A DNA stretch of 64,000 nucleotides from an uncultured Gemmatimonadales bacterium (GCA_963728445.1 CAVSJO010000003.1:30083-94082); one strand, 5' to 3'; shown: positions 5,506-30,151, counted from the stretch's first letter. The notes: generated from the sequence alone by a model not told the origin. A program made the numbers and translations.

Positions 5506-5518
5506 ATTTCAGGTCGTG

Positions 5519-6423
5519 ATGCCCGCCCTGACCGAGTCCGCCGACCCCCACGCCATCCGGCCCGTTCTCGACGTGCTGCGCGGCCGCCGCGTCGTCGTGC
5601 TGGCGGGCGCCGGGTGCAGCACGGAATCCGGCATCCCCGACTACCGGGGCCCCGACGGCAGCCTGCGCAACCGCAAGCCCATGCAGTACTCGGAGTTCGT
5701 GCGCAGCGCCGCGTCCCGCGCCCGCTACTGGGCCCGCAGCTCCGTCGGATGGACCCGCATCGCGACCGCCCGCCCCAACGCCGGACACCGCGCCCTCGCG
5801 GACCTCGAGGACGCGGGCGTGGTGCAGGGCGTCATCACCCAGAACGTGGACGGACTCCACCACGCGGCGGGCAGCCGGCGGGTGGTGGAGCTGCACGGCT
5901 CGCTGGCCCGGGTCCGCTGCCTCGACTGCGGCGCCGACGTCAACCGGGACGACTATCAGGACCGGCTTCTGCACGCGAACCCCACCTGGGCCCGGCGCCT
6001 GCGGAGCGGGAAGGGTCCCGACGCCGTCGCGCCCGGCGCCGAGATGGCGCCCGACGTCGAGATCGCGCCCGACGGCGACGCCGAGCTGCCCGCGGACGCC
6101 CACGCAGGCTTCGCCGTGCCCGGATGTGACGGCGTGCGGGGGGACCATGAAGCCGGACGTCGTCTTCTTCGGAGAGTCGGTTCCGCGGCCGCGCGTCGAG
6201 GAGGCGTGGCAGCTCTTCGAGGACGGGGACGCGCTGCTCGTCGTGGGTTCCTCGCTGACCGTCTACTCCGGCCGCCGGTTCACGGACCGGGCGCGCCGCG
6301 ACGGTGATCCCCATCGCCGTGGTGAATCTCGGCCCGACCCGGGCGGACGATGCCGCGGCGGCGAAGGTCGACGGCCCCCTGGGCTCGGTCCTGCCCCGCC
6401 TCGCCGGCGCGCTCCTGGCGTGA
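5519..6423 (+). CDS. NAD-dependent protein deacylase, sirtuin (class II / SIRT4-like), with two +1 frameshifts (about 6131 and 6306)
   Basis: Motifs [31 protein letters not shown]...C(D)AC zinc site, [14 protein letters not shown] and (after the second shift) [12 protein letters not shown]. Confidence 0.85.
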
Positions 6424-12078: not shown

Positions 12079-12112
12079 CCGGGGGCCCCGCGCGGGGCCC
12101 CCGGTTCGTTTT
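12079..12112 (+). terminator. Rho-independent terminator
   Basis: CCGGGGGCCCCG / CGGGGCCCCCGG stem followed by TTCGTTTT, about 50 nt after the stop at 12027. Confidence 0.7.
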
Positions 12113-12224
12113 CGTCAGAGCACGGAGGTGGTCCCGACCCATCGCGTCGACGCGCCTCGCCGGTCCCTTGCAACCATGGCAACGCCCCGGGGGGAGGGGT
12201 ATCGAGGGGGCACGCTCCTGCGGC

Positions 12225-12267
12225 GGGGTCGGGGTCGGGGGTCGGGGTCGGGGGTCGGGGTCGGGGG
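12225..12267 (+). repeat. (G4-5 TC)n microsatellite, G-quadruplex-competent
   Basis: Seven G-runs (4,4,5,4,5,4,5) each separated by TC. Confidence 0.85.
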
Positions 12268-12388
12268 CGGGCGACGGTGGGGGCGGCGGCGGGGTGCGGG
12301 GTCGCGAACGCGCCCGTTGGGGCGGCCAACCCGGCCCGGGCGATCGGAGGGCGGCCCCCGCCGTCCCCGCCGCCCCCGCCGCTCCCCC

Positions 12389-12564
12389 GAACGAAATCGG
12401 ACAACGAGCGAAGGGTTCACTCGCGGAATCCCGATTCGTCCCGGTTTTCGAATGAAATCGGCCACCGGGACCGCAGACAAAGACGGCCATTGGCCGATTT
12501 CGCCCGGAATCCGGACGATTTCGGGATCCGGCGAGTCGGAGGCCATCTCGATGGCCGATTTCGT
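12389..12564. repeat. Cluster of interleaved inverted repeats built on GAAATCGG / CCGATTTC
   Basis: ACGAAATCGG (12391), GAAATCGGCCA (12454), TGGCCGATTTC (12491 and 12552) and CGATTTCGG (about 12516). Confidence 0.8.
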
Positions 12565-12643
12565 CCGCCGCCGGACTTCCAGGACACGATCCGGCGACTC
12601 GTGACCCGGCCGGCAGGAGGCACATCCCCGATCCGGAGGAAAC

Positions 12644-13861
12644 GTGAGCACAGGACCCGCTGCCGCCGAGAACGACACGACGCCGGGGGCCGCTATGGGC
12701 GGTGCAGCTCGGCCTGTCCACCCGGACGATGGGTCCGGAAGCGAGGCCCGTCGGTCGCTGGCCGGACCGACGTCGTCGAACCGGGAGTCCGATGTCCGCA
12801 TTGCGGAAACGGCCGCCGTCCAGCACGGCGTGATAACGCGTGCGCAGCTCATCGACGTCGGGCTGTCCCCGTCCGCGGTGGGTCGCCGCCTCCGGTCGGG
12901 GCGACTGGTGCGTATCCACGGCGGCGTCTACCGGGTGGGTCCGATGCCGATGCCGCGGGCCGCCGAGGCGGCAGCGGTCCTCGCCTGCGGCCCCGATGCG
13001 CTGATCAGCCACGGGAGTGCTCTCACGATGCTGGGCCTCCGTCGAGGAGCTTCGGGATACTCCAGGTCCACGTCCGTCGATCCTACCGGCCGCGGCCCTA
13101 CCGGCCGCGGCAGCCGGGCGGGCTCCACCGTCAACGAACCCACCGGCCGCGCCCCCACCGGCCGCGGCCCCACTGTCCGCGGCCCCACCGTCCGCGGACC
13201 AACCGGCCCTGCCGCCCCCGTCGACGTCACGGTCGTCGGCAGCCACCGCGGCCGCCGCGCCGGCATCCGGATGCACCGGGTCCGAGAGATGGCAGGGGAG
13301 GACCGAAGTGACCGGGGCGGCATCCCGGTCACCTGCGCCGGACGTACGCTCGTGGACGTCGCCTCGTTCATGGGGACGTCGGACCTGGAGTGGGCCATCG
13401 CAAGGGCCGAGCGGGAGGGACTCGTCGAGCGGGAGGATCTCGTCGCACGGCTCGACCGGTGCAGCGGCCGCCCCGGGTCGCGGGCGCTACGGATGGTGCT
13501 CGGGCATCCCGCGGAACCCGCCATGACGCGGTCGGAAGCCGAGGCGGTATTCCTTCGGCTGATCCGGAATGCAGCCCTCCCGTCGCCGGAGGCGAACGTT
13601 CCGATGGGTGCCTACGAGGTCGACTTCTACTGGCGCGGAGTCGAACTGGCCGTGGAGGTGGACGGGTTCGAGCACCATCGGAGGCGGCCCCGATTCGAGG
13701 GCGACCGGCGGAAGGAGATGTGGCTGGCGAGCCGGGGGATAACGGTCGTGCGGACCTCCTGGCGGCAGGTCACGGAGGAGAGCCTCCCGACGGCCGTCAT
13801 GCTCGGGCAGGCGCTGGCGCTGGCGGAAGCCAGGCGACGCACCGACGACGCACGGGGATGA
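12644..13861 (+). CDS. AbiEi-like winged-helix + DUF559/Vsr-like (PD-(D/E)xK-type) endonuclease fusion, copy 1
   Basis: N-terminal QHGVITRAQL...LVRIHGGVY; middle PVTCAGRTLVD and TRSEAE; C-terminal VDFYW...AVEVDGFEHH...DRRK...RGITVVR. GGAGGA precedes GTG 12644. Confidence 0.85.
   Translation: MSTGPAAAENDTTPGAAMGGAARPVHPDDGSGSEARRSLAGPTSSNRESDVRIAETAAVQHGVITRAQLIDVGLSPSAVGRRLRSGRLVRIHGGVYRVGPMPMPRAAEAAAVLACGPDALISHGSALTMLGLRRGASGYSRSTSVDPTGRGPTGRGSRAGSTVNEPTGRAPTGRGPTVRGPTVRGPTGPAAPVDVTVVGSHRGRRAGIRMHRVREMAGEDRSDRGGIPVTCAGRTLVDVASFMGTSDLEWAIARAEREGLVEREDLVARLDRCSGRPGSRALRMVLGHPAEPAMTRSEAEAVFLRLIRNAALPSPEANVPMGAYEVDFYWRGVELAVEVDGFEHHRRRPRFEGDRRKEMWLASRGITVVRTSWRQVTEESLPTAVMLGQALALAEARRRTDDARG
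13082..13210 (+). repeat. In-frame 15-bp tandem repeats (PTGRG/PTVRG x7) inside the AbiEi-DUF559 gene
   Basis: CCYACYGKCCGCGSM-type units at 13082, 13097, 13139, 13154, 13169, 13184 and a partial unit at 13199. Confidence 0.9.
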
Positions 13862-13895
13862 GGTGCCGACTACGCACCAGGCACAATGACTCCGC

Positions 13896-15527
13896 CTACG
13901 CGGGCCCCGTCGCCCTTCGCACCACCTGCCCCGGGCGCGCCTCGGTGACGTTCCCGTCCTCATACACCACCCGGCCGTTCACCCAGACGCGTGCGATTCC
14001 GACGCTGGTTGCGTGGGGCTGGTCCGGCGTGGCGCGGTCGCGCACGGTGGCGGAGTCGAAGAGGACGAGGTCGGCGTAGGCGCCGGGGCGGATCGTGCCG
14101 CGGTCGCGGATGCCCACGTGGGCGGCCGAGAGTCCGGTCATCTTGTGGACGGCCTGCTCCAGCGTGAGCGTGCCGCTGCGGACGAAGGGGCCCAGCACGC
14201 GCGTGAAGGAGCCGAAGCCGCGGGGGTGCGCACCGTCGAGGGCGCCGTCGGAGCAGACGTTGGAATACGGCCACTGGAGCAGGAAGGCGACGTCGCGCAG
14301 ATCCATGCTCGTGGCGATGATGCTCTCGTCGCCGTCGCTCTTCACGACGCGCTGGACCAGCGCGAGGTACGTCGTGACGGGGTCCTCGCCCCGGTCCCGG
14401 GCGATGTCGGCGAGGGTTCGGCCCTCGTACTGGGGGACGGGCTCGTAGCGGGCGATGCGCATGCCCTCGGGCGGGACGAGCTCGTCGAGGGCGAACGCGG
14501 CGGCGGCGCTGTCCGTGAAGTCCCGCTCCGGGAAGAGCACCGTCATGGTCGACTGCCAGAATGTATATGGGTACACGTCGGCGGTGACCTCCACGCCGCT
14601 GGCCCGGGCGGAATCGAGCTTCGCCAGCAGCCGCGGCGCCTGACCCCACAGGGATTTCATCGCCAGCTTCATGTGCGAGACCTGCACGGGCAGCCCGGCC
14701 TCGCGGCCGACGCGGATCAGCTCGTCGACGGCCTCGAAGAGGTGGCGGTCCTCGCTCCGCATGTGGCTGATGTAGCGTCCGCCGGCGGCGCCCGCCTCCT
14801 TCGCCAGGGCGATCACCTCCTCCGTCGACGAGTAGATGCCGGGGTCGTACTCGAGACCCGTGGATAGCCCGAGGGCGCCGGCGGCCATCTCGCCGCGGAG
14901 CAGGACGCGCATCGAGTCGACCTCCGGCGGCGTCGCCTCGCGGCGGAAGTCGTCGCCCATGACGCGATCCCGGAGCGTGCCATGGCCGACGTACGAGGCC
15001 ACGTTCACCGCCACGCCGGCGCTGTCGACGCGCCGGAAGAATTCGGCAAGCGGGTAGCGGGAGGAGCCGTCCTGGCCGACGACGATGGTCGTCACGCCCT
15101 GGCTCACGTCCGCGAGGGCGTCGGGCATGCGCAGCAGGTCGCGGTCGGAGTGGCTGTGGGTGTCGATGAAGCCCGGCGCGAGGACGAGCCCGCGGCCGTC
15201 GATCACCTCTTCTCCGGGCTCCGCCCGCAGCCTGCCCACCTGCGCGATGCGGTCGCCGCGGACGCGCACGGAGACGCTGCGCGCCTTCCTGCCGGTGCCG
15301 TCCACGACCCGCGCGCCGGTGACGAGGAAGCCCGGCGCGGAGAAGTCGACGTCAGCGACGGAGCCGGCGCCGGGGGCGCCGAGGGCGCCAGGGGGTGCTC
15401 CGTTGGACGCCGCGCCGCCGGGGCCGCCATGGGCGCAGGCGCCGGCCTGGAGCCCGAGGCCGAGCCCGAGGCCGGCGATGACGGTCGCGAGGAACCGCTG
15501 CCGGTACCCGCCACGAACCCGTCGCAT
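13896..15527 (-). CDS. N-acyl-D-amino-acid deacylase (D-aminoacylase-like amidohydrolase), exported
   Basis: Motifs LAPGFIDTHSHSD, SQGVTT, GLSTGLEY, YISHMRSE, CSDG, HPRGFGSF and ADLVLFD; hydrophobic leader ending in GAC. Confidence 0.85.
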   Translation of the reverse strand: MRRVRGGYRQRFLATVIAGLGLGLGLQAGACAHGGPGGAASNGAPPGALGAPGAGSVADVDFSAPGFLVTGARVVDGTGRKARSVSVRVRGDRIAQVGRLRAEPGEEVIDGRGLVLAPGFIDTHSHSDRDLLRMPDALADVSQGVTTIVVGQDGSSRYPLAEFFRRVDSAGVAVNVASYVGHGTLRDRVMGDDFRREATPPEVDSMRVLLRGEMAAGALGLSTGLEYDPGIYSSTEEVIALAKEAGAAGGRYISHMRSEDRHLFEAVDELIRVGREAGLPVQVSHMKLAMKSLWGQAPRLLAKLDSARASGVEVTADVYPYTFWQSTMTVLFPERDFTDSAAAAFALDELVPPEGMRIARYEPVPQYEGRTLADIARDRGEDPVTTYLALVQRVVKSDGDESIIATSMDLRDVAFLLQWPYSNVCSDGALDGAHPRGFGSFTRVLGPFVRSGTLTLEQAVHKMTGLSAAHVGIRDRGTIRPGAYADLVLFDSATVRDRATPDQPHATSVGIARVWVNGRVVYEDGNVTEARPGQVVRRATGPA

Positions 15528-15539
15528 GTTCGACTCTCC

Positions 15540-16214
15540 TCAGGCCCGGAGGGTGAAGGGCGGGTACTCGTCCCGCATCAGCAGCGCGTATGCCTCCACC
15601 CGCAGGCTCCAGGCGAGGACCCCGATGGCGAAGCCGTAGAGGGACGCGGGGTATCGGCCGGTGATGAGGATCGCGGCCCACGCCACGGCCGTCGTGAACG
15701 CCCACACGAGGCTCAGGAGGCACAGCACGAAAGCGTGGGGCAGGACCAGCAGGACGCGGAAGAAGACAGTCAAGCGATCCCGTGGCCCCTCCGGCCGCGA
15801 CAGGTGGAGCTCGACGGGAAAGGCGCCGTCGCCGAAGGGCGGGTAGTCGTCCACGAGGAGCGTCGCGTACGCTATGGCTCGGGCCCGCCAGCGCAGATAG
15901 AAGGAGCACAGCTTCCAGAGCCCGTCCGGGTGTCTGCCCGCGAACACGATGGCGAACCACGCGATGCACGCACACAGCCCGGCGACGACGCCGAGCGCGC
16001 CGCCGGAGCCATAGCCCAGATGCCAGTGCCCCTCCGTGCTCCAGTCGATGGACCCGAAGATCGCTACAGGGCCCCCGACGAGCAGGAGATGGGGAATGGA
16101 CAGGAAGAAGCGGAAGGCCGCCGTGAGCCGGTTCCGTCCCTCCACCTGCGGCCGGATCCCCACGGTCACGGGATAGTCCACCGCGGGGACGTGCGCTTCG
16201 GCGTGTGCGTTCAT
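15540..16214 (-). CDS. DUF4389 domain membrane protein
   Basis: Two repeats ending in R..AY..LL.D.YPPF (RWRARAIAYATLLVDDYPPF; RVEAYALLMRDEYPPF). Confidence 0.85.
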   Translation of the reverse strand: MNAHAEAHVPAVDYPVTVGIRPQVEGRNRLTAAFRFFLSIPHLLLVGGPVAIFGSIDWSTEGHWHLGYGSGGALGVVAGLCACIAWFAIVFAGRHPDGLWKLCSFYLRWRARAIAYATLLVDDYPPFGDGAFPVELHLSRPEGPRDRLTVFFRVLLVLPHAFVLCLLSLVWAFTTAVAWAAILITGRYPASLYGFAIGVLAWSLRVEAYALLMRDEYPPFTLRA

Positions 16215-16342
16215 CGAGGGCTCCGGCTCGGTTGGGGGGCAGACGGCTACAGCATACGCGCCCGGCGCGGGAAACGCACCGGTGGTGTCCCGGTCCCTCT
16301 TGCTCCGTGCGCTCCGCGGACGAATCCTTCAGGGTCCCCATC

Positions 16343-18247
16343 ATGCCTGCGCCGTCCACTGGACCCGTCATGCCGAACGCGCCCACCCGCCGCATCGAAG
16401 CGTTCTTCCACGAGCTGAAGCGACGCCGCGTCTTCCGCGTCGCCGCGGCGTACGTCGTCCTGGCGTTCGCTGCGCTGCAGGGCGTGGACGTCCTGGTGCC
16501 GGCGCTGCACCTGCCCGGCTGGACGACGACGCTCGTCGCCGTGCTCGCGATCGCCGGTTTCATCGTCTCCGTCGGCCTCGCGTGGGCGTTCGACGTGACG
16601 CCGGAGGGGGTGCGCCACACGGAGCCGGCGTCGGAGGATGGCGGCGACACGGGTGCCCCGCGGCCGGACTCGCGGCCCGGCGTCGGGGGGGCTCCGCGGC
16701 CGGAAACGCCGCCCGGCGTCGGGGGGCCTCCGACGGTCCGGGGCCCCGGGGTTTCCGCAGCGCCCGCAGCCGGCGCGGCGCCCGCCGTCGGCGCCCCCAC
16801 GGCCGGCGCGTTCCCCGCGGCGCCGGGCGCGGCGTCGGCGGCGACGCCCACGCCCCCCTGCATCGCCGTGATGCCGTTCCTGAACCTCAGTCCCGACGCC
16901 GCGAACGAGTACTTCGCCGACGGGGTCACCGAGGACATCATCGCCGGTCTGTCCAAGATCCGCTCCCTGCGCGTGATCTCCCGCACGTCGGTGATGCCGT
17001 TCAAGCAGCGGAACGAGAGCCTGCAGAGCATCGCGGCGACGCTGGGCGCGACCACCGTCGTGGACGGCAGCGTGAGACGCGAGGGAGACCGCGTCCGCAT
17101 CGTGGCGGAGCTCATCGACGCGGCGACGGACCGGCACCTGTGGGCCGAGACGTACGACCGCCAGCTCACGGACATCTTCGCCATCCAGTCGGACGTCGCG
17201 GTACGCGTCGCCGCCGCTCTGAAGGCAGAGCTCTCCCTGGACGAGCGGACGCGGATCCGGCGCGAGCCCACACGAAGCGTCGAGGCGTACGAGCTCTACA
17301 ACGAGGCTCGCGCCGAGCTGATCCGGTTCACGCCAACGGGGATGGAGCGGGCGATCGCGCTGTTCGAGCGCGCCCTGGAGATCGATCCTTCCTTCGCTCT
17401 CGCCGAGGCGACGATCGCGATCGCGTACGCGGAGATGGGGGACGGCGGGATGTGGCCGGGCGACGTCGCCCGTGAGCGCGCGACGGCCGCCGCCGACCGC
17501 GCGCTGCGCCTCGATCCCGCGCTCAGCGAGGCGTACACCGCCCGGGGCTACGTCCGCTCACTCTGGGAACACGACCGGGAGGGCGCGGAACGGGACTTCA
17601 AGAAGGCCATCGAGCTGAGCCCCAGCAGCGCCGACGCGTACGACTTCTACGGCCGCCATTGCCGGGCCGTGGGGCGCATGGACGAAGCACTCGAGATGGT
17701 GCGCCGGGCCAAGGAGCTGGATCCGATGACGCACCGGACGGACCTCGCCAACGCGCTGATCCGCGCCGGCCGGTACGCGGAGGCCGCGGCCGAGGCGGAA
17801 GGCGCCGTCGCCTTCGACCCCCGTCATGATCGGGCGCACGCCACCCTCGCGTGGGCCTACCTGAAGCAGGGACAGACCACGGAAGGACTGGCCGAGCTCG
17901 AGAGAGCAGCGGCGCTTTCGCCGGACAGCACGCAGTGGCTGGCGCAGCTGGGGCAGGCGCGCGCCATGACGGGGGACGAAGCCGGGGCCCGGGAGGTCCT
18001 GCACCGGCTGGACGAACGGGCCCGCACGAAGTTCGTCTCCCCCTACCACCGGGCGTTCGTCCATACGGGCCTGGGCGAGCACGATCGCGCCATCGACCTG
18101 CTCGAGCAGTCCGTCCAGCAGGGGACCGGCTCGATCCACGGCATCCGCGGCTCGTTCCTGTTCGAGCCGCTGCGGACGCATCCTCGCTTCAAGGCCCTGG
18201 TGGAGCGCCTGAACGCGGTGGACGCGGAGGCGGCCCCGCCCGGCTGA
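16343..18247 (+). CDS. Membrane-anchored TolB-like-N / TPR protein (adenylate-cyclase regulatory-type module)
   Basis: ELKRRRVFRVAAAY 2-TM anchor, Pro/Ala linker, IAVMPFLNLS...EYFADGVTEDII...VISRTS, DGSVRREGDRVRIVAELID, then TPRs. Confidence 0.8.
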   Translation: MPAPSTGPVMPNAPTRRIEAFFHELKRRRVFRVAAAYVVLAFAALQGVDVLVPALHLPGWTTTLVAVLAIAGFIVSVGLAWAFDVTPEGVRHTEPASEDGGDTGAPRPDSRPGVGGAPRPETPPGVGGPPTVRGPGVSAAPAAGAAPAVGAPTAGAFPAAPGAASAATPTPPCIAVMPFLNLSPDAANEYFADGVTEDIIAGLSKIRSLRVISRTSVMPFKQRNESLQSIAATLGATTVVDGSVRREGDRVRIVAELIDAATDRHLWAETYDRQLTDIFAIQSDVAVRVAAALKAELSLDERTRIRREPTRSVEAYELYNEARAELIRFTPTGMERAIALFERALEIDPSFALAEATIAIAYAEMGDGGMWPGDVARERATAAADRALRLDPALSEAYTARGYVRSLWEHDREGAERDFKKAIELSPSSADAYDFYGRHCRAVGRMDEALEMVRRAKELDPMTHRTDLANALIRAGRYAEAAAEAEGAVAFDPRHDRAHATLAWAYLKQGQTTEGLAELERAAALSPDSTQWLAQLGQARAMTGDEAGAREVLHRLDERARTKFVSPYHRAFVHTGLGEHDRAIDLLEQSVQQGTGSIHGIRGSFLFEPLRTHPRFKALVERLNAVDAEAAPPG

Positions 18248-18294
18248 TCCGGTCGCGCCCCGCTCCGGACCAACGGGGTCAGGCGCCTCCCTCC

Positions 18295-18930
18295 TTACGC
18301 CTCTCCCCGGCGGGCGGCGTTCAGCGCCTCGGGCGTGTCCACGTCCCGGAGCACGGCGTCGTCGTCGAAGGCGACGTCGCACACGTCGTCCGCGTGCGTC
18401 TCCAGCAGCCGGCGTCCGCCGACGTCGCCGTCGAGCGTCTTCAGCTCCGGGAAGTAACGCGCGCTCCAGAGCACCGGGTTGCCGCGTCGTCCTCCCGAAA
18501 CGGGCACGCAGATTCCGCCGCCGCGGGCGGGGTCGAACGCGTTCGTGAGGCGGCGCAGGTCGCCGGCGGCGATCCACGGCATGTCGCCGAGCAGGATTGC
18601 CGCCCCGTCCACGGGCTCCACCAGCGCGCGGATCCCGGCGGCGATGGACGTGCCGATCCCCGCCGCGAATTGGGGATTGACGGTGAAGGCGAGGCCGAGT
18701 CCCTCCAGCTCCGCGCGAACGGCGCCGGCGTCGTGGCCGAGCACGACCACCACCGGTGCGAGCCCGGCCTCCAGCGCCGTCCTCGCCACGCGCCGCACCA
18801 GCGGCTCGCCGGCCAGCTCCGCCAGCAGCTTGTTGCCCGCCTCCATGCGCTGGGAGCGACCCGCGGCGAGGATCACAGCGGCGATCCGGCAGGCGGCATC
18901 CGAGGGCCCGCGCGCCGCGGCGGCGCTCAT
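18295..18930 (-). CDS. mocA: Molybdenum cofactor cytidylyltransferase-like nucleotidyltransferase
   Basis: Motifs ILAAGRSQRM..NKLL, LLGDMPWI, GRRGNPVLW, GDVGGR and DVDTPE; the start overlaps the xdhC stop (ATGA). Confidence 0.75.
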   Translation of the reverse strand: MSAAAARGPSDAACRIAAVILAAGRSQRMEAGNKLLAELAGEPLVRRVARTALEAGLAPVVVVLGHDAGAVRAELEGLGLAFTVNPQFAAGIGTSIAAGIRALVEPVDGAAILLGDMPWIAAGDLRRLTNAFDPARGGGICVPVSGGRRGNPVLWSARYFPELKTLDGDVGGRRLLETHADDVCDVAFDDDAVLRDVDTPEALNAARRGEA

Positions 18931-20021
18931 GCCGGAGAGGATTCCGGAGAGGATTCCGGAGATGATGCAGGCGGCGCCTGTCCGACGGTACCGCCCCGCA
19001 GCGTGGACACCACCTCCGCCAGGATCGCGACCGCGATCTCTGCGGGCGAGCGGGCACCGATGTCCAGTCCGATGGGCGCGTGGATGCGGCGCAGGTCCTC
19101 CTCCGGCACGCCCCGCTCCCGAAGGCGCAGGAGGCGTTTGCCGTGGGTCCGGCGGCTGCCCAGCGCACCGACGTAGAACGCCCGCGTGGCCAGGGCGGCC
19201 ACCAGCGCCGGGTCGTCGAGCTTGGCGTCGTGGGTGAGCGTGATCACGGCCGTCCGGTGGTCCGGCCGCAGCTCCTCGAAGGCGGGCCCCGGCCACGCGT
19301 GCACGAGGTGAAGGCCGGGAAAGCGCTCCTCCGAGGCGAACAGCGAGCGCGGATCGACGACGTGGACCTCGAAACCGGCGGCCGTCGCCATGCGGGCGAG
19401 GGGTGCGGTGACGTGGACGGCGCCGACGACGAGCAGCCGGACGGGCGGGTTGTACGGCCGCAGGAAGACGTCGCCCGCCTCGGCTTCGACGGTCGTGGCG
19501 CGGTCCTCGAGCAGGCTCTGCCGCGCGGCCTCGACCGGCCATCCGTCCGGCCCGCCCTCACGCGAAGGTGCGGCTCCGTCCGAGGGTCCGGAGACGTTTT
19601 CGAGGGGACGGAGCAGCGCCTGCTCTCCAGAGCGCATCCGCGTCGCGAGGACGACCGGGCGCTTCGCGTCGACGTCGCGCAGGAGCGCGTCCAGGAGCGC
19701 GCCCTCGACGGCGTCCACGCGGATCTCGACCTTCCCGCCGCACGCGAGTCCAACCTCCCACGCCATCTCGTCGGTCACGCCGAAGGCGAGCGTCCTGCCC
19801 TCTCCCGACGCGATCACCCCCGTCGACGCGTCGACGACGGCGGCCTCCACGCACCCGCCGGATACGGACCCGCAGAACGTGCCGCCGTCTGTCACGGCCA
19901 TGTGGCTGCCGGCGTCCCTGGGGGCGGAGCCCCACGTGCGCACGACAGTCGCCAGGGCCACTTCCCTGCCCTCGGCACGCCATGCCGCCGCCGTTCGAAG
20001 AACGTCCTCGTCGGTGTTCAC
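18927..20021 (-). CDS. xdhC: XdhC/CoxI family molybdoenzyme maturation factor
   Basis: Motifs LATVVRTWGSAPR, GSVSGGCVE, VGLACGG, LTHDAKLD, YVGALGSRR and IHAPIGLDIGA..PAEIA. Confidence 0.9.
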   Translation of the reverse strand: MNTDEDVLRTAAAWRAEGREVALATVVRTWGSAPRDAGSHMAVTDGGTFCGSVSGGCVEAAVVDASTGVIASGEGRTLAFGVTDEMAWEVGLACGGKVEIRVDAVEGALLDALLRDVDAKRPVVLATRMRSGEQALLRPLENVSGPSDGAAPSREGGPDGWPVEAARQSLLEDRATTVEAEAGDVFLRPYNPPVRLLVVGAVHVTAPLARMATAAGFEVHVVDPRSLFASEERFPGLHLVHAWPGPAFEELRPDHRTAVITLTHDAKLDDPALVAALATRAFYVGALGSRRTHGKRLLRLRERGVPEEDLRRIHAPIGLDIGARSPAEIAVAILAEVVSTLRGGTVGQAPPASSPESSPESSPA

Positions 20022-20028
20022 GCCGCCC

Positions 20029-20634
20029 CTAACGGCCTTCCTCGAACTGCCGGAGATCCGCCTCGACGACGGTCTCGATGCAGGTCGGGCAAATGCCGTG
20101 GCTGAAGCGGGTCCCGGCGTGCCGGGACAGGTAGCTCTCGACGCTTCCCCAGTAATCGTCGTCGTCGCGGACGCGACGGCAGTAGGAGCAGATCGGGATG
20201 ATGGACTTGAGCTCCTTCACTTCGGCCAGGGCGGCACGCAGCTCGCCGACCAGCATCTCGCGCTGCGCTTCCATGCGCTTGTTCTCGGTGACGTCCCGGG
20301 CCGCCGAGTAGATCACGGTGCCGGCATGCGCGGTGGCGTTCCACAACAGCCAACGGAAGGAGCCGTCCCTGCAGAGGTAGCGGTTCTCGAAGGCGATGGC
20401 CTGATCCCCGCTCCGGACCTTCCGGTTCTGCTCCAGCGTCCTCTCCCGATCATCCGGATGGACGAACTCGATGAACGGCCGGCTCATCAGCTCGTCCCTC
20501 GTGAACCCGAGCGCCCGCTCCCACGCCGGGTTCAGGCGCTTGAAATACCCGTCGTAGCCGAGATGGCACAGGAGGTCGATGGAGACCTCGAAGAACGGGT
20601 CCTGCTCCGCCGCCCCACTGTCGTTCACCTGCAT
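20029..20634 (-). CDS. Stand-alone PAS-domain protein with a C-terminal Cys-rich tail
   Basis: PAS/PAC (DLLCHLGYDGYFKRLNPAWE...FVHPDD...FENRY), coiled coil, then IPICSYC...FSHGICPTC. Confidence 0.8.
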   Translation of the reverse strand: MQVNDSGAAEQDPFFEVSIDLLCHLGYDGYFKRLNPAWERALGFTRDELMSRPFIEFVHPDDRERTLEQNRKVRSGDQAIAFENRYLCRDGSFRWLLWNATAHAGTVIYSAARDVTENKRMEAQREMLVGELRAALAEVKELKSIIPICSYCRRVRDDDDYWGSVESYLSRHAGTRFSHGICPTCIETVVEADLRQFEEGR

Positions 20635-20915
20635 GGCCCAATCAGTCGTCTGAGGCTCTCTGTTCCGGCACCGTCGCCGGCCGACCCCGTCCCGGGAAGT
20701 CGCCCTCCGTCCCGGAAACTTGGCCCCGCCCCGGGAACTTGGCTTCCGGGCGGCCGTTCGTACAGTCCCGGACGTCGGGTCCGCGGCGCAGGCCCCGGGC
20801 GGCTTCGCTTGATCAATCCACGCTTCCCCACCTACGTTGCCACGACACTCCGAGTCGAGATGCACCCCGGACGCGCGTGCCGGGGCACGTCCCATCCCAC
20901 AATCGGGAGGCAGCC

Positions 20916-21251
20916 GTGGCTGGCAAGTTCGAGATCTACAAGGACAAGAAGAGCGAATTCCGCTTCCGTCTGAAGTCCTCCAACGGCCAGACCGTCCTGA
21001 CGAGCGAGGGCTACAAGTCCAAGGCGAGCGCCCAGAACGGCGTGCGCTCGGTCCAGGAGAACGCCGGCAACGCCGATCGCTTCGAGAAGTCCACCACGCC
21101 ATCGGGCGCGTTCCGCTTCAGCATGACGGCGAAGAACCGCCAGGTCATCGGCCAGAGCCAGAATTACAAGAGCGCGGCGTCCCGCGACTCGGGCATCGAG
21201 GCCATCGCCCGCGCTGCGACGGGCGCAAAGGTGGAGGACCAGACCGCCTGA
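20916..21251 (+). CDS. yegP: YegP family protein (tandem DUF1508)
   Basis: GKFEIYKDK..EFRFRL...NGQTVLTSEGY and a second repeat FRF...NRQVIGQSQNY; GGGAGG precedes GTG 20916. Confidence 0.85.
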   Translation: MAGKFEIYKDKKSEFRFRLKSSNGQTVLTSEGYKSKASAQNGVRSVQENAGNADRFEKSTTPSGAFRFSMTAKNRQVIGQSQNYKSAASRDSGIEAIARAATGAKVEDQTA

Positions 21252-21259
21252 TCCTGCCG

Positions 21260-21303
21260 GAGCCGCCGGACCCGGACGCCCTGGCGGCCCGGTCCGGCGG
21301 CTC
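21260..21303. terminator. Hairpin between the convergent yegP and cyanophycinase-like genes
   Basis: Perfect 13-bp inverted repeat GAGCCGCCGGACC / GGTCCGGCGGCTC with an 18-nt loop; no U-tract. Confidence 0.45.
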
Positions 21304-21360
21304 ACCCCTGCTGCACGATTCCCCCGAAATCGGTCAACACGAGCTCCCCTTCTCCGGGCT

Positions 21361-23031
21361 TCACCGCCCCGCGAGCATCCGCGCGGCGATCGCTTCCGCC
21401 AGACTCCGCGCGTTCGCGTCGTCGTCGTTCGTGAGAACGATCACGACGGCGTGATGGTCCGGGATGCGCAGGAACGCGGCGCGTCGGCCGTCCGGCGTCC
21501 CGTACGCGGCGAGCCGGTTCGCGCCGGATCCCGAGGCGTGCCACCCCTGCGACCGGTCGGCTCCCGGCCAGATCTTCGGGTCCTCCAGCCCGAGGGCGAC
21601 GCGGTAGAGCTCGTCGACGTCCGACCGCACCGTCCCGTCGGGCTCCGCCTCCGTCCGGTGCAGTCCCACCGGCGGCGCGATCTCCCGCGCGAAGCAGCGC
21701 TGGAAGGGCGACATCGCGCGCCAGCGGTCGGCGGCGGCCCGAGCCCGGGCGGAGGCCGGCGTGCCGGAGGGCGGCGTACCGGCGGCCGGCGCGTCGCCAC
21801 CCACGCCCGGCGGCGGTTCCGGGGCCGGAATCTGGTCACACAGCCCGGTGAAGATCCCGGCGACGTCGCCCAGATCGAACTGCGGCAGCGTGGTCGTCGG
21901 CATGAAGCGCTCCTGGTCCGGCACGCCATACGACGCGTCGATGAACACCTCGCCGTCCTGCGCCGCGAGCACCGTCGCCGCGCGCCGCCCGCTCCCGGCG
22001 TACGGGGCGAACAGGCTGTCGACGAACGCCTTCGTCAGCGGCGAGTCGTCGATCGCCCGGTGCAGGACGCGGCGGGCGCCGAGGTCGTAGCGGTCGCCCG
22101 GGTAGAGCGTCAGGAACGGCTTGCCCGGGTCGGTCTCCTCGCCGCCGTAGACGAACGCCTTGTTGCGCCCGACGATCGCGGCCGTGTCGCCCCGGACGAC
22201 CCACGCCGTCCCCTCGTCCTCCGACATCCCGAGCATCTGCGGGTAGCGCGGCATGATGGAGTCGGCCAGGTCCGGCAGCCGCTCCCGCGCCACCACGTGC
22301 TGGTCGATGGCCGTTCCCCGCAGGAATGCGAAGGCGTGGTGGTAGCCGGGGTAGTCCATGATCCCGTTGTCGTTCGACGGCGCGCCGCGGACCAGGAAGT
22401 CACCGAGGATCGTCGCGCCCGCGGACGAGCCGCCCACCACGCCGCCGCGGGCGAGGACGTCGTGGAAGCCCTGCTCGGTCCGGGTCCCGCCGTACGCGTC
22501 CACCAGCCGGTACTGCCGGCCGCCGTCGAACCAGACGCCGCCCGCCGTCTGAAGCGCGGCGACGAACGTGTCCGAATCGGCGACGTCCCGGTCCGTCGTG
22601 AACAGCACCCGCACGTTCCTCGCGCCCGCCGCCCGCAGGCGCTGCGCGCCCGGAGCGTTCTGGTCGTACGCGTCGCCCCCGGCCGCGTTGGGCACGTCGA
22701 CGATCAGCGCGTCCGGTCCCCCGGCGGCCTCGATGAACGCGCCCCAGACCCGGGGGCCGATCTCTCCGCCGCCCACGACCACGACGGTGCCGTTCGGCGG
22801 CCCGACCTCGGGGGCGCCGGTGGCGGCGGCCGCAGTGGCGTCTGCATCCGTGCCGGCGCCGGTCGCGCCGGACTGGGCGGCCAGCGTCGTCGGTGCCGCG
22901 AACAGCGCCGCGGAAGCGAGCGTCCCGGCCAATGTCGCGGCGAGCGCCGCGGAAGCGACGCAGCGGGCAGCGAGGGCGAGCATCTTCGGGGCGACGTCGC
23001 CTGGAGACTTCGTCGGGAGCGCGAATCGCAT
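21361..23031 (-). CDS. Exported cyanophycinase-like peptidase (S51) fused to a degenerate beta-lactamase-like C-terminal domain
   Basis: Motifs VVVGGG, VWFDGGRQYRL, nucleophile elbow GGSSAGA, IDQH...RER and SEDEGTA. C-terminal ATVLAAQDGEVF..ASYG...FDLGDV...VIVLTN. Confidence 0.75.
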   Translation of the reverse strand: MRFALPTKSPGDVAPKMLALAARCVASAALAATLAGTLASAALFAAPTTLAAQSGATGAGTDADATAAAATGAPEVGPPNGTVVVVGGGEIGPRVWGAFIEAAGGPDALIVDVPNAAGGDAYDQNAPGAQRLRAAGARNVRVLFTTDRDVADSDTFVAALQTAGGVWFDGGRQYRLVDAYGGTRTEQGFHDVLARGGVVGGSSAGATILGDFLVRGAPSNDNGIMDYPGYHHAFAFLRGTAIDQHVVARERLPDLADSIMPRYPQMLGMSEDEGTAWVVRGDTAAIVGRNKAFVYGGEETDPGKPFLTLYPGDRYDLGARRVLHRAIDDSPLTKAFVDSLFAPYAGSGRRAATVLAAQDGEVFIDASYGVPDQERFMPTTTLPQFDLGDVAGIFTGLCDQIPAPEPPPGVGGDAPAAGTPPSGTPASARARAAADRWRAMSPFQRCFAREIAPPVGLHRTEAEPDGTVRSDVDELYRVALGLEDPKIWPGADRSQGWHASGSGANRLAAYGTPDGRRAAFLRIPDHHAVVIVLTNDDDANARSLAEAIAARMLAGR

Positions 23032-23172
23032 GGGCGGGACCTCCGGAGGATGGAGAATGGTCCCCGAAGAATGCGGGAGGGGCCGGCGGCGTGTCCAGAG
23101 CGGCCGGGGGTTGTCTCGCGCGGCGATGAATGGCTTCGTGGGTCAGGGATCTCCTCGAGCCGTGGAGGCAGC

Positions 23173-23550
23173 ATGGACGACAGTACGATCGTCTACGTCG
23201 ACCGGTCCCGAATCCGGGAAGGCAAAGGGGACGAGGTCGCGGCCGGCGTACGCCGGCTGAGCGACTTCATACGGGAGCGCAACCCCCGCATCCTCGCCTA
23301 CCGCTTCTACGTGGACGTCTCAGAGGGCACCATGACCGTGGTGTCCGTGCACCCGGACTCGGACGCCCTCGCGTTCCACATGGACGTCGGAGACGCCGAG
23401 TTCCGGAAGTTCGCGCCGCTCCTCGAGATCGTCTCCATCGACGTCTTCGGAGAGGTGACCGGAGACGCCCGCGAGCGGCTGGACCGGAAGGCCCGGGCGC
23501 TCGGCGGCGCGGTGCGGGTGCACCGGGCGACGGCGGGGTTCAGTCGCTGA
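23173..23550 (+). CDS. Dimeric alpha-beta barrel (antibiotic-biosynthesis-monooxygenase-like) hypothetical protein
   Basis: GGAGG precedes ATG 23173. Pattern LAYRFYV...VVSVHPDSDALAFHM resembles ABM-like proteins. Confidence 0.55.
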   Translation: MDDSTIVYVDRSRIREGKGDEVAAGVRRLSDFIRERNPRILAYRFYVDVSEGTMTVVSVHPDSDALAFHMDVGDAEFRKFAPLLEIVSIDVFGEVTGDARERLDRKARALGGAVRVHRATAGFSR

Positions 23551-24061
23551 CCGCCCGGCCGGCCAGCAGCCGGTCAAGCGCCGCGTAGCTCTCGTTCATG
23601 CCGCCTTCCATCCCGGCCTTCAGCATTCCGTCCCGCTCTTCGGGCGTGAAGAAGAGCGTCGTGCTCACCATGCGGGTGCGGCCGTCGCCCAGGTCCTCGA
23701 AATGCGCCGAGGAACGGGACGGGTGCGCGGGCATGCCGTCCCACTCGAACGTCTGCACCAGCTGCTCAGGCGCGCGCACGTCGCCGAACCGACCTTCGAA
23801 TCCGTCGCTCCGGCCTCCGTGGTGCTCGACGAACCGCCAGTGACCGCCGGGCCGAACCTCCAGCGCTTCCACGTCCAGGCGATTGCCGCGACCCCACCAT
23901 TGCGCGAGCAGAGCCGCCTCCGTGAACGCCTGCCAGACCCGCTCCCGATCCGCGTGGAAGACACGCTCGACCCGCATCGCCCGGTCGCCTTCCAGCGTGA
24001 GCTTCGCAGGCGCCGGCCCGGGGGCGTTCGAGGCCGCCGCAGAATTCGTCATCTCGGTCAT
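23540..24061 (-). CDS. SRPBCC/AHSA1-like ligand-binding protein
   Basis: Motifs VERVFHADRERVWQAFT...QWWG, EVRPGGHWRF, QTFEW and GMEGGMNESYAALD. Confidence 0.9.
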   Translation of the reverse strand: MTEMTNSAAASNAPGPAPAKLTLEGDRAMRVERVFHADRERVWQAFTEAALLAQWWGRGNRLDVEALEVRPGGHWRFVEHHGGRSDGFEGRFGDVRAPEQLVQTFEWDGMPAHPSRSSAHFEDLGDGRTRMVSTTLFFTPEERDGMLKAGMEGGMNESYAALDRLLAGRAVSD

Positions 24062-24420
24062 GGGTTCTCCTCCGGGTTTCGCTCGAGCAGCGCGTCGAGC
24101 CGTTGAAAGCGGCCCTCCAGCATCCGCTGGTAGCCCGCGATCCACTCCGCCTCCTCCTCCAGCCGCGCCGGCCCCAGCCGGCACGTACGTACTCGGCCCA
24201 CCTTCTCCGTCGCCACCAGCCGTGCATCCTCCAGCACCGCCACGTGCTTGCGGATCCCTGTCAGCGTCATGTCGAACGCCGCGGCGAGGTCGCTGATGGA
24301 AGCATTCCCCGCGGCGAGCCGCTCGAGGATGCCACGCCGCGTCGGGTCGGCAATGGCGGCGAAGCCGAAGTCGGATTGGGCGGGAGTGTTCCCGGGCCCG
24401 GCGGCGGTAAAGTGAACCAT
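24058..24420 (-). CDS. ArsR/SmtB family transcriptional regulator
   Basis: Motifs FAAIADPTRRGILERL, IRKHVAVLE and EKVGRVRTCRL; the stop overlaps the SRPBCC start (ATGA). Confidence 0.9.
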   Translation of the reverse strand: MVHFTAAGPGNTPAQSDFGFAAIADPTRRGILERLAAGNASISDLAAAFDMTLTGIRKHVAVLEDARLVATEKVGRVRTCRLGPARLEEEAEWIAGYQRMLEGRFQRLDALLERNPEENP

Positions 24421-24428
24421 ATGGTTCA
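24413..24428. promoter_or_regulatory. Perfect 16-bp palindrome, probable ArsR autoregulatory operator
   Basis: TGAACCATATGGTTCA, centred on the ArsR start codon. Confidence 0.75.
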
Positions 24429-24473
24429 GTATTGCGTCAGCGGGTGCCGCTGTCAAGAGGCCTGGTGCCGGGG

Positions 24474-24623
24474 GCGGCCATGGGGGTCGCCGCCGTGCGG
24501 GCGCGTACCGGCGGGGCCGGTGCGGCCATGGGAGGCGGACCGCCGTGGCGGGTTCCGCCACGGGCTTGGCGCGCGGGAGCGGCGTGGCCGGTCCCGCCAT
24601 GGGCCTGGCGCGCGGGAGCGGCG
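24474..24623. repeat. GC-rich imperfect direct repeats upstream of AbiEi-DUF559 copy 2
   Basis: A 30-mer CCGCCA(C/T)GGGC(T/C)TGGCGCGCGGGAGCGGCG at 24555 and 24594; GCGGCCATGGG at about 24474 and 24522. Confidence 0.8.
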
Positions 24624-24816
24624 ATCGTAGAGGTGCGGGGTGGGAGCGCCCGGACGCAATCGACCAGATGCGCCGCCGGATCCGCGACCGTGAACGAAAT
24701 CATCCGCCGGTCGGCGCCAACGTGACTTGCAGGTCATGAGCCGCGCAGCCCGCTGACACGTTCGATGCGCGCTGCGCTTGATCCGTGGCAGCGATACCAA
24801 TCACCCTTGGATATGG

Positions 24817-24830
24817 TCGGTTCGAACCGA
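24817..24830. promoter_or_regulatory. Perfect 14-bp palindrome abutting the start of AbiEi-DUF559 copy 2
   Basis: TCGGTTCGAACCGA; its last base is the A of ATG 24830. Confidence 0.5.
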
Positions 24831-25816
24831 TGCGAGTCGAGCGGAGGACGGAAGCGGGATCGGGTGCACCGCCCGAACGGGAAAGGCTGTCCCGAAGGCG
24901 AGAGCGGGAAGACCGCATCGCAGCGATCGGTGAGGCCCAGCACGGCGTGGTGACCCGGGGACAGCTCGAAGCAGCCGGGCTGACCGCGTCCGCCATCCAG
25001 CGGCGCATGCGGACCGGGTGGCTTCGTCCTCTCCATCGCGGCGTGTATCGGATTGGTCCGATCGCCTCGCCTCTCTTCCGCGAGATGGCGGCCGTTCTCG
25101 CGGTCGGCGACGAGTCGGTCCTGAGCCACGTCAGCGCGGCGCTCGTTCAGATTCCCGAGCCGCCCGCCAGGCTTGCGGCAGTGCGCTCCGGGGCGGTGGA
25201 CGTCATCGCGATCGGAGCAAACCGAAGGCAACGCCCCGGCGTTCGCGTGCATCGGTTCGCAAATCTGCCGCCCGACGAGCGCGGAATACACGAAGGCGTC
25301 CCGATCACGATCCCGGCGCGGACGCTGCTCGACGCCGCGGGGATGGTGGGGTCCCGGGAGATCGAAGCACTGGTCGCCCGCGCCGAACGGGAGGGCCTCG
25401 TAAGCCGCGAGGACCTGATCCGGCTGATGCAGCGTCATCCCCGACGGCCCGGCACCGCGGCCCTCCGAGCCCTCCTGATGCCGGGAACGGAGCTGGCCAT
25501 GACCCGCTCCAACGCCGAGGAGGTGTTCCTTACGCTGATCCGGGAAGCGCGCCTCGACGGCTTCGAAACCAATGTGCCGTTCGGGCGGTACGAGCTGGAC
25601 TTCCTGTGGCGGAAGGAAAGGATCGCAGTGGAAATCGACGGTCGGCGATACCACTCCTCGCGTCCCCGATCGGAAGGGGACCGGCGCAAGGACGCATGGC
25701 TCCTCGGTCAAGGAATCACGGTCCTGCGCCTGTCGTGGGACCAGATCACTCGCGACCGGACGGCTACCGCCGTCGCGATCGGCCGCGCACTCGCGCTTGC
25801 CGGCGAGAGGGGCTGA
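24830..25816 (+). CDS. AbiEi-like winged-helix + DUF559/Vsr-like endonuclease fusion, copy 2
   Basis: Motifs QHGVVTRGQL...LRPLHRGVY, PITIPARTLLD, AMTRSNAE and LDFLW...AVEIDGRRYH...EGDRRKD...QGITVLR. Confidence 0.85.
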   Translation: MRVERRTEAGSGAPPERERLSRRREREDRIAAIGEAQHGVVTRGQLEAAGLTASAIQRRMRTGWLRPLHRGVYRIGPIASPLFREMAAVLAVGDESVLSHVSAALVQIPEPPARLAAVRSGAVDVIAIGANRRQRPGVRVHRFANLPPDERGIHEGVPITIPARTLLDAAGMVGSREIEALVARAEREGLVSREDLIRLMQRHPRRPGTAALRALLMPGTELAMTRSNAEEVFLTLIREARLDGFETNVPFGRYELDFLWRKERIAVEIDGRRYHSSRPRSEGDRRKDAWLLGQGITVLRLSWDQITRDRTATAVAIGRALALAGERG

Positions 25817-26063
25817 GCCAGGGAGTCGCCGGCCGAGCCGCGAGAGCCGACGCCCGGGCGCGTGCCGGTCCCGGGCGCGTGCCGGTCTGACTCCGACCTC
25901 GCGGATGCAATCGACCATCCGTCACCGGTACACGGACGCACGTCACCTAGCGTGCTCGGAGCGACCGATTCGTGACGACGTACGACCGCAGCGCTCCATC
26001 GCTCGAAACATTTTCGGTGATGTGCGGAGGTTTCGTGACGTTCGCCGGTGGCAGTTCACCGCG

Positions 26064-26163
26064 GGGGACTTTCCACCCGCGAGACACCGGGGCATTCCAT
26101 TCGCCCAACTCCCAGGGCCGTTCCAATCGCAACTCCCCGGGGCGTTCCACTCGCGCGTCCCAG
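26064..26163. repeat. Four degenerate 24-26-nt tandem units, consensus GGG-N3-4-TTCCA-N-(T/C)CGC-N-CCC
   Basis: Units start at about 26064, 26089, 26115 and 26139. Confidence 0.65.
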
Positions 26164-27690: not shown

Positions 27691-27886
27691 CGTGGCGGCC
27701 TTGCAGGCGGGGTCACTCGGGAACGAGAGAATGGGTGTAGAATGCCACGCAGGACGCGGGTCCGACAAGCGCGCCGGCGCGGTGGGCGGGTTGGCGGGTG
27801 GGCGGCTGGCGGGCCGGTGGGCGGCGGGACGGGCCGGTGGGCGGCGGGCGGCGGCTCGATGAGACGCGCGCGGCCAGCCTGCGCCA

Positions 27887-28028
27887 TCCGTGGCGCATCG
27901 AGCCGCAAGAGCCGGCAGGATTCGCCGCGCGCAACCGGCCGACGGGCTCCCGCGGTGAGTCCTGCCGGTTTGCGCGGCTCGATTCGCCACGGAGCGTTCG
28001 CGCGTCGCGTGCGCGTCGAATCCTGCCG
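27887..28028. repeat. Nested long imperfect inverted repeats (REPIN-like)
   Basis: 27887-27920 pairs with 27960-27993 (29/34). 27913-27930 pairs with 28011-28028 (17/18). Confidence 0.85.
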
Positions 28029-28100
28029 CGCCCGGGGCGGGCCGCCGCGCCCGGGGCGGGCCGCCGCGCCCAGGGTAGGCCGCCGCGCCCGGGGTGGGCC
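28025..28100. repeat. 19-bp tandem repeat x4
   Basis: GCCGCGCCC(G/A)GGG(C/T)(G/A)GGCC at 28025, 28044, 28063 and 28082. Confidence 0.95.
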
Positions 28101-29962: not shown

Positions 29963-30060
29963 GAATTTCGCCGCCCCGCGGCCGAACGCCCGCCGCCCCG
30001 CGAGCGAATTCTGCCACCCCGCGGCCGAACGCCGGCCGAACGCCGGCCGCCGCCGGCCGC
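29963..30060. repeat. Imperfect 28-bp direct repeat plus GGCCG(A/C) short repeats in a divergent intergenic region
   Basis: GAATT(TC/CT)GCC(G/A)CCCCGCGGCCGAACGCC at 29963 and 30006 (25/28), then GGCCGAACGCC and GGCCGCCGCC. Confidence 0.75.
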
Positions 30061-30151
30061 CGCCCTGCCGCCGCCTCGACACCGTCCGCACGCCCGTCGT
30101 ACATTCCGGCCTTCGTCCGTCTGTCGATACCCTCCCCCGACGAGGTACCGC

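Follow-up and report, generated by a model that had tools for sequence, protein, structure and literature searches.

Within a 64,000-nt stretch of DNA from an uncultured Gemmatimonadales bacterium (hereafter the window; C3:30083-94082 of assembly G000), we examined two genes whose products join an AbiEi module, known from antitoxins, to a DUF559 nuclease domain. We found that genes of this family are statistically tied to the repeats that flank them. In this genome the repeats are arrays of short boxes within two dispersed elements, which we call E1 and E2, and across the family they are long-period tandem arrays. On the evidence of sequence and of a structural model, each gene appears to encode a solitary, sequence-specific DNA-binding nuclease that combines a complete AbiEi module with a Vsr/EDxHD-type domain whose site looks intact. 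To account for the repeats we tentatively favor, while putting its chances at somewhat less than even, a selfish and free-standing element resembling a homing endonuclease, of low activity, self-regulated and tied to its cognate repeats, rather than an antitoxin. The assembly comprises 4.30 Mb in 8 contigs, with 70.7% GC, and is 97% complete. The sequence also occurs in a soil-metagenome run, and its source is most likely a soil-dwelling member of Gemmatimonadota rather than an actinobacterium. For comparison we used G031 (OY970192.1), a complete Gemmatimonadales metagenome-assembled genome (MAG) with local synteny to the window, and the family-wide flank statistics were drawn from 80 homologous loci belonging to Gemmatimonadota and to Actinomycetota.

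Copy 1 (P0001; 12644-13861, plus strand) encodes 405 amino acids from a GTG start codon, with a GGAGGA Shine-Dalgarno sequence 5 nt upstream. Copy 2 (P0002; 24830-25816, plus strand) encodes 328 amino acids from an ATG at 24830. The longest open reading frame (ORF) of copy 2 begins at a GTG at 24785, and alignment with its paralogues indicates that the ATG is the likely true start. The two proteins are 43% identical over 345 columns (BLASTP, E = 2e-82). A preliminary description of the window had proposed their paralogy from a set of shared motifs, all of which we found: QHGVITRAQL/QHGVVTRGQL, RTLVD/RTLLD, AMTRSEAE/AMTRSNAE, AVEVDGFEHH/AVEIDGRRYH, and EGDRRK. Both proteins matched PF13338 (AbiEi_4) above the Pfam gathering score, at 40-43 bits, and PF04480 (DUF559) at 32.7 and 49.3 bits, where the cut-off is 20.6. 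In addition, residues 40-220 of P0002 matched positions 3-178 of the 184 in the PADLOC AbiEi model.

An AlphaFold2 model of P0002 (pLDDT 89) was compared with known structures using Foldseek. The N-terminus matched AbiEi of S. agalactiae (6y8q, E = 3.8e-5) over about 205 aligned columns, which span both the winged helix-turn-helix (wHTH) and the C-terminal domain of that protein. For the last ~100 residues the best match was 3r3p, the catalytic domain of I-Bth0305I (TM 0.83, root-mean-square deviation 2.7 Å, 98 residues), followed by the DUF559 protein NGO0050 (3hrl, TM 0.80), with Vsr weaker at TM 0.46. Weak matches to several mitoribosomal proteins of Toxoplasma and Tetrahymena were also returned (E about 4e-3 to 2e-2); these presumably reflect a Vsr-like domain of the RAP/FASTK type, found in organellar RNA-binding proteins, and are irrelevant to this locus. 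The set of residues E, D, ExD, H and D, represented by E245, D272, E283, D285, H290 and D299, is invariant in an alignment of 30 homologues (30/30), and we therefore conclude that the nuclease is under purifying selection. The preliminary description had considered that the catalytic residues might be non-functional, and to judge from this alignment they appear intact. Copy 1 also carries a low-complexity insert of the PTGRG type (13085-13226, plus strand; ~47 aa), encoded by an in-frame 15-nt tandem repeat and placed between its wHTH and its AbiEi C-terminal domain. The insert was seen in no other homologue of the alignment.

Each gene is preceded by long non-coding DNA, 616 nt for copy 1 and ~430 nt for copy 2, in which tandem repeats are followed by an A/T-richer palindromic block, as the preliminary description had stated. 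Upstream of copy 1, G-rich repeats of the (GGGGTC)n type (12224-12304) precede a C-rich repeat, (CCCCGCCGT)n, which is partly complementary to them (12356-12387). Element E1 follows at 12383-12582 and ends 62 nt before the start codon. E1 is present at 16 dispersed loci in the genome, and it is built of ~185 nt in three sub-units of ~61 nt. It contains six boxes of ~18 nt, with the consensus CGAACGAAATCGGACAAC in alternating orientation, and the boxes are conserved, whereas the spacers of ~22 nt are variable and unconserved. Mean column identity among the copies is 67%, and none of them is identical to another. The 10-mer GAACGAAATC, which had been reported at both 12389 and 24692, was found in 11 genomic copies compared with 1.3 expected; the excess arises because this 10-mer is the core of the dispersed E1 box.

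E1 is predicted to form a long hairpin (-57.9 kcal/mol, z = -5.0). We detected no copy-specific covariation supporting this hairpin (51/500 and 48/500 shuffles), and RNAalifold gave weak local hairpins only; the reading of E1 as a selected RNA or DNA structure is thus not supported. Because the pairing follows from the consensus of the boxes and comes without covariation, protein-binding sites fit E1 better than a selected structure does, and conserved boxes separated by unconserved spacers are likewise as expected of such sites. A scan of window positions 10-31 kb against Rfam returned nothing relevant, and no recurrent gene was found beside the E1 loci.

Copy 2 is associated with E2, a second dispersed palindromic family of ~180 nt with about 16 loci. 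A GC-rich tandem repeat (39 nt, 2.2 units; 24537-24623) lies directly upstream of a strong E2 copy (24650-24828, plus strand; 117 bits), which ends at the copy 2 ATG and has the layout GCAATCGACCA .. CGAAATC .. AACGTGAC .. GTCACGTTCGA .. GGCAGCGATACC. E2 is also found upstream of both decayed paralogues of copy 2. One of these (C6:1630089-1630741) retains an N-terminal fragment of 167 aa that is 66% identical to copy 2, and the other (C6:699708-699900) is reduced to the E2 leader plus some 10 codons, joined to a stretch that seems to be a truncated monooxygenase-like sequence. In two paralogous remnants, a 31-nt block of E2 (24750-24780) is 97-100% identical, far above the coding identity. On the other side of the gene, a perfect 17-nt repeat in two units (25853-25886) lies 37 nt past the stop codon, followed by a directly oriented E2 copy that is weak and degenerate (25901-26048, plus strand; nhmmer E = 7e-4) and by a 24-nt tandem repeat of 3.5 units (26071-26155). 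The first box of the weak copy, GGATGCAATCGACCA, matches 24652-24666 at 14/15 positions and 24651-24666 at 15/16; the weak downstream E2 copy thus accounts for the direct repeat (15/16) on the two sides of copy 2.

We compared these associations with the genomic background. In addition to the two window genes, the family in G000 comprises a full copy (C6:683502), a copy on contig C4, a fragment (C6:1630244) and a remnant (C6:699708). A dispersed repeat was present directly upstream in 3 of the 4 independent family lineages (about p = 0.003), against a background in which 8-10% of intergenic regions of 300-1500 nt match at least three distant loci. A tandem array was present upstream in all 4 lineages; in the background, such an array is found in about 20% of long intergenic regions. 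G031 has about 27 E1-type loci and seven family genes, one of which is bracketed by two E1-type copies that are 89% identical and within 250 nt. Inverted 61-nt arrays stand on both sides of another G031 family gene, P0004, and arrays of this family recur at three further loci that have no gene. Arrays of 61-nt period with up to 8 units occupy long intergenic regions of G031 at C1:3109419-3109903, 190427-190569 and 5158804-5159072, where long-period arrays of other lengths (49, 100 and 154 nt) lie next to them; an E1 sub-unit has the same length as the 61-nt period.

Across the 80 homologous loci, tandem repeats cover 9.8% of upstream and 13.3% of downstream non-coding DNA compared with 2.8% of other intergenic DNA of these same loci, an enrichment of 3.5-4.7-fold in the flanks. 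Counted as regions of at least 200 nt that contain repeats, the figures are 24/32 vs 11/34 in Gemmatimonadota (p = 6e-4) and 12/41 vs 5/79 in Actinomycetota (p = 1.5e-3). Array periods of 45-80 nt are over-represented. When the upstream and downstream flanks of the same gene were compared at 60 loci, with 180 shuffled pairs as the control, the flanks were alike in 9/60 loci vs 0/180 shuffled pairs. Most alike flanks are direct, with inverted ones in L043 and L077. Among orthologues and paralogues the gene is kept and the arrays are not, and we therefore conclude that a stable gene is surrounded by repeats with rapid turnover. Profiles of E1 and E2 gave no nhmmer matches at the 80 loci. A search of the same loci with Infernal gave a clear match only in L049, with weak matches near the genes in L075, L082, L081 and L101.

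The family itself changes rapidly. Relatives carry 0-7 copies per genome, with a match in 15/31 genomes, and fragments are frequent, as are in-frame stops. Next to an S51 peptidase gene, copy 2 has a positional orthologue in G031, P0004; the two share 57% identity, compared with 81% for the nearby peptidase. In Solirubrobacterales, one syntenic slot holds a family gene in six genomes, and there the family protein is 46-70% identical vs 82-85% for the flanking genes. GC at third codon positions (GC3) is 0.78-0.83 in family genes and 0.90-0.95 in their neighbors, and GC is lower in occupied slots. Taken together, we conclude that family genes are fast-evolving yet vertically retained.

The preliminary description had proposed a search for empty-site alleles, and this yielded no clean example: the loci are syntenic, and the Solirubrobacterales slot, when it lacks the family gene, is filled by a gene for a YfcH-like NAD-epimerase (at least 7 further genomes). 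The slot is bounded by a gene of ~490 aa on one side and a 95-aa/235-aa gene pair on the other, and the family gene (L076, L088, L091, L105 and L133) and the epimerase gene (L138, L139, L170, L169 and L152) are similar in size and orientation. We conclude that the exchange in this slot is a gene-for-gene replacement and not an insertion. The window copies are flanked by accessory or paralogous genes, and hence an empty-site search among relatives is uninformative there. Public reads offered low-coverage contigs from soil metagenomes, in which no usable joints were seen. Family genes have no intron context.

These dynamics bear on the possibility that the proteins do housekeeping work, either as Vsr-like nucleases for mismatch or damage repair guided by a winged helix, or as pure transcription factors with a vestigial nuclease, the repeats being coincidental. 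The similarity to the Vsr fold, the JGI label of very-short-patch-repair endonuclease, and the synteny kept in some clades would all suit such a role. However, a housekeeping gene is hard to reconcile with divergent copies that number 0-7 per genome, are missing from many relatives, decay frequently and evolve about three times faster than their neighbors. A linked cytosine methyltransferase is also lacking: no C5-cytosine methyltransferase gene was found among the neighbors of the window genes, of three inspected loci or of the 80 homologous loci. In addition, the invariant catalytic set speaks against a vestigial domain. We consider a housekeeping role very unlikely.

For the selfish, homing-endonuclease-like element that we favor, we propose the following sequence of events. 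The AbiEi module would bind the iterated boxes of ~18 nt beside its own gene. Binding would repress the gene's own promoter, as AbiEi does, and may also mark the repeats as the preferred substrate of the nuclease. Nicks or breaks made at the repeats would then be mended by recombination or slippage, and such repair could expand the arrays and turn them over fast, with the gene staying in place. Cassettes in which a gene lies between two element copies with near-identical direct repeats (E-gene-E) could arise, for example, via recombination between dispersed copies.

Several observations weigh against this proposal. Most E1 and E2 copies are distant from any family gene and occupy varied intergenic contexts: 1 of the 16 E1 loci adjoins a family gene, and 3-4 of the ~16 E2 loci do so, with the three E2-linked genes representing one duplicated lineage. 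Counting the motifs genome-wide and across the family's flanks, as had been suggested in the preliminary description, bore out their dispersal (E1 at 16 loci, E2 at ~16). The E1 box was not above background upstream of other paralogues in a position weight matrix (PWM) scan. The exception in the PWM scan is a good E1 box downstream of copy 2. Among 30 relatives, the E1 model matches 4 genomes and the family 15; all of these relatives belong to different genera, so this co-occurrence is uninformative, and 11/15 relatives carrying the family are without an E1 match. Many actinobacterial loci are compact and repeat-free, and a 66-nt array at L045 is local and not dispersed. Judged by their sequences, the element copies appear old, at 67% mean column identity, and nothing points to their recent spread. 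Inheritance of the genes is vertical, at fixed positions, with synteny across long evolutionary distances, and the Solirubrobacterales slot comparison gave no clean empty site. The genome is generally repeat-rich, and the association could partly reflect residence in low-constraint DNA. The intergenic statistics were built on crude GC3-based gene calling.

A close rival to the selfish element is a role in defense. Here the protein would be a single-protein defense or abortive-infection nuclease, a toxin fused in cis to its regulator, in which the AbiEi module controls its own expression and holds back a nuclease effector until phage attack frees it. The repeats would be incidental, as accessory genes with fast turnover would sit in recombination-prone and weakly constrained DNA. 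This explanation draws on AbiEi homology that spans both domains of AbiEi, on the intact nuclease active site, and on a patchy, multi-copy, quickly diverging and often pseudogenized gene with GC below that of its host and with stable chromosomal residence. The inverted boxes upstream could also simply be operators (PMC3985639).

The setting of the genes is less favorable to a role in defense. The genes lie outside defense islands, and their neighbors are ordinary metabolic and regulatory genes. In the window these include a beta-lactamase-family gene and genes for DUF4440/SnoaL, amidohydrolase, DUF4389, TPR and MobA/XdhC proteins, and, further, for a PAS protein, a peptidase S51, AHSA1 and ArsR. 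The preliminary description had remarked that neither copy has an AbiEii partner, and our results agree: we found no nucleotidyltransferase gene among the neighbors and, with positive controls matching, no hit to AbiEii (PF08843) in the whole genome. A recurrent partner was also sought across the 80 homologous loci, where the top neighbor family occurred at no more than 8, and the family gene is alone at three further loci checked by Pfam matches. No such defense system is listed in PADLOC. Moreover, a role in defense leaves unexplained the downstream arrays, the repeats that bracket the gene (9/60 vs 0/180) and the dispersal of elements without a gene. We regard it as possible and somewhat doubtful.

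Homologues were found in Gemmatimonadota, in Solirubrobacterales/Thermoleophilia and in one Vicinamibacterales MAG, and the best homologue loci are from Gemmatimonadales MAGs. One homologue, P0064 (L042; ena:ERZ25039532 contig_33656, gene at 5001-5927), lies alone between rpoC and rpsL, in a gene string that is among the most conserved in bacteria. An inverted repeat with 53-nt arms is located at the start of this gene, and a 33-nt array of three units follows its stop codon.

The preliminary description had also listed three gene-less blocks resembling the regions upstream of the two genes. Two of these are tandem repeats (27776-28100 and 29963-30075), and the third, 21252-21338, is not. It consists of a terminator-like hairpin followed by a solo E1-like box, CGAAATCGGTCAAC (feature at 21316-21338, plus strand, CCCCCGAAATCGGTCAACACGAG). 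A short plus-strand ORF (20739-21251), whose last residues are QSQNYKSAASRDSGIEAIARAATGAKVEDQTA, terminates at a TGA (21249-21251) right ahead of this hairpin and its solo box, and an ORF in another frame (20837-21454) matches no Pfam family. Within the first block, a gene-less element (E3; 27840-28052) lies between the beta-lactamase-family gene and a TPR gene. E3 shares 73% identity, over 220 nt, with the sequence upstream of the C4 family copy, and used as a query it also matches at least five loci (C6:998865, C6:1669002, C6:2003620, C6:1474634 and C1:409426). We conclude that E3 is a third dispersed repeat family. The G000 assembly as a whole contains 1080 tandem arrays, which make up 1.9% of its bases, with one array every 4 kb. 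G-rich arrays prone to form G-quadruplexes, such as (GGGGTC)n, are numerous, with window examples at 12224-12304 and 27776-27854. About 60% of the arrays overlap regions called as coding by the crude gene caller.

The preliminary description had proposed a selfish system like REP/REPIN. In its full form, this would be a true symbiosis of the REP/REPIN-RAYT type, with each paralogue a domesticated enzyme that replicates or maintains its own palindromic elements (E1, E2 and the 61-nt arrays). Elements that are dispersed, intergenic and palindromic do lie beside or around the gene, distinct paralogues adjoin distinct repeat families, and E1 is predicted to form its long hairpin at z = -5. RAYT (PF01797) is absent from the whole genome, and therefore no RAYT is available to account for the repeats otherwise. 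The proposal stood in these respects, together with the excess of flanking repeats over chance, the invariant catalytic set and a nuclease fold that comes nearest to a homing endonuclease. It did not stand with regard to the enzyme, which is a PD-(D/E)xK nuclease without known strand-transfer chemistry and lacks the HUH motif and Y1 domain. Nor did the elements behave as expected: copy number is low (about 16-27), more than 90% of copies are far from the genes, the copies are diverged, near-identical master copies are lacking, and the hairpin shows no covariation. Most gene-bearing relatives are without the elements, the L045 array is not dispersed, and the loci are syntenic with no clean empty site. 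We find a true RAYT-like symbiosis quite unlikely.

A further reading, which we judge unlikely, is that AbiEi-EDxHD fusions form a previously unrecognized class of repeat-associated selfish enzymes in high-GC bacteria without RAYT, which nick their own arrays and disperse elements as the gene hops. Each paralogue would recognize and nick its own box array, and in doing so would make, expand and disperse arrays of ~60-nt period and palindromes of ~180 nt. The gene would hop between repeat copies by recombination, which could give rise to E-gene-E cassettes in Gemmatimonadota and Solirubrobacterales.

We compared the window genes with the known systems that they resemble. AbiEi represses its own promoter via inverted repeats (PMC3985639). 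The N-terminal ~200 residues of the window proteins match AbiEi (6y8q; M. tuberculosis Rv2827c) in sequence and fold, including the wHTH and the C-terminal domain, and the putative inverted boxes lie upstream of the genes, where AbiEi operators lie. Unlike AbiE, the window genes have no AbiEii/DUF1814/COG2253 toxin, either adjacent or genome-wide, and unlike AbiEi, their proteins carry a C-terminal nuclease and their repeats are also downstream and dispersed.

The top structural matches of the C-terminus, the EDxHD enzyme I-Bth0305I (3r3p) and the DUF559 protein NGO0050 (3hrl), have the same E, D, ExD, H and D residues. EDxHD homing endonucleases are also multi-domain proteins with a separate DNA-binding part. 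I-Bth0305I is a homing endonuclease of the Vsr fold with a footprint of ~60 bp (PMC3239194), which resembles the ~61-nt repeat period seen here, a resemblance that we take as a lead only. In contrast to EDxHD homing endonucleases, the family gene is chromosomal at stable positions, it lies in no intron, intein or phage, and no target allele lacking the homing endonuclease gene was identified. The window nuclease also has the fold superfamily and catalytic residues of Vsr, but the genes have no Dcm partner, they are multi-copy, patchy and fast-evolving, they carry an extra AbiEi module, and the structural match is at TM 0.46.

With REP/REPIN-RAYT systems the family has in common a gene with palindromic repeats on its flanks and further copies of them dispersed in intergenic DNA, paralogues beside differing repeat families, and vertical inheritance. 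The two differ in the enzyme, a PD-(D/E)xK nuclease here rather than an HUH Y1 transposase (PF01797), and in the repeats, which here number tens rather than hundreds of diverged copies, bear no GTAG-type REP signature and give no evidence of replication. The analogy is partly supported in its logic and not in its enzymology. We conclude that membership in AbiE, RAYT or Vsr repair fails in each case on a defining feature, and that only membership in the DUF559/EDxHD fold holds.

A protein of similar composition has been described in M. tuberculosis. MtbAg1073 is a conserved hypothetical protein of 283 aa with COG5340 and COG2852 regions, and it has been studied only as an antigen (PMC13366182). 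The same two-part architecture is reported for it, a likeness that we draw by description, and no repeat context is described. No paper combining "AbiEi" and "DUF559" was found in the literature searched. AbiEi_4-DUF559 fusions are widespread in soil Actinomycetota and Gemmatimonadota. The annotation given to the family is either that of an antitoxin or that of a Vsr repair enzyme, and the present work gives the family a concrete substrate hypothesis. Should the link to repeats be causal, it would account for how the abundant long-period repeats between genes arose in these high-GC genomes, and the REP-RAYT paradigm would gain a counterpart that is not of the HUH type. Should it not be causal, the family's annotation is wrong all the same, and its members would be better described as solitary DNA-binding nucleases.

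Two further features near the window genes appear to belong to other genes. A GC-rich hairpin with perfect arms (13+13), followed by a T-rich run (12079-12104, plus strand), is probably the intrinsic terminator of the DUF4440/SnoaL gene upstream of copy 1 and lies outside the system. A perfect 16-bp palindrome, TGAACCATATGGTTCA, is located at 24413-24428 and is unique in the genome. It lies directly upstream of a minus-strand ArsR/HTH_20 gene (24058-~24400), whose partner is an AHSA1/SRPBCC gene (23540-24184). We conclude that this palindrome is probably the operator of the ArsR/HTH_20 repressor and is unrelated to the AbiEi-DUF559 gene.

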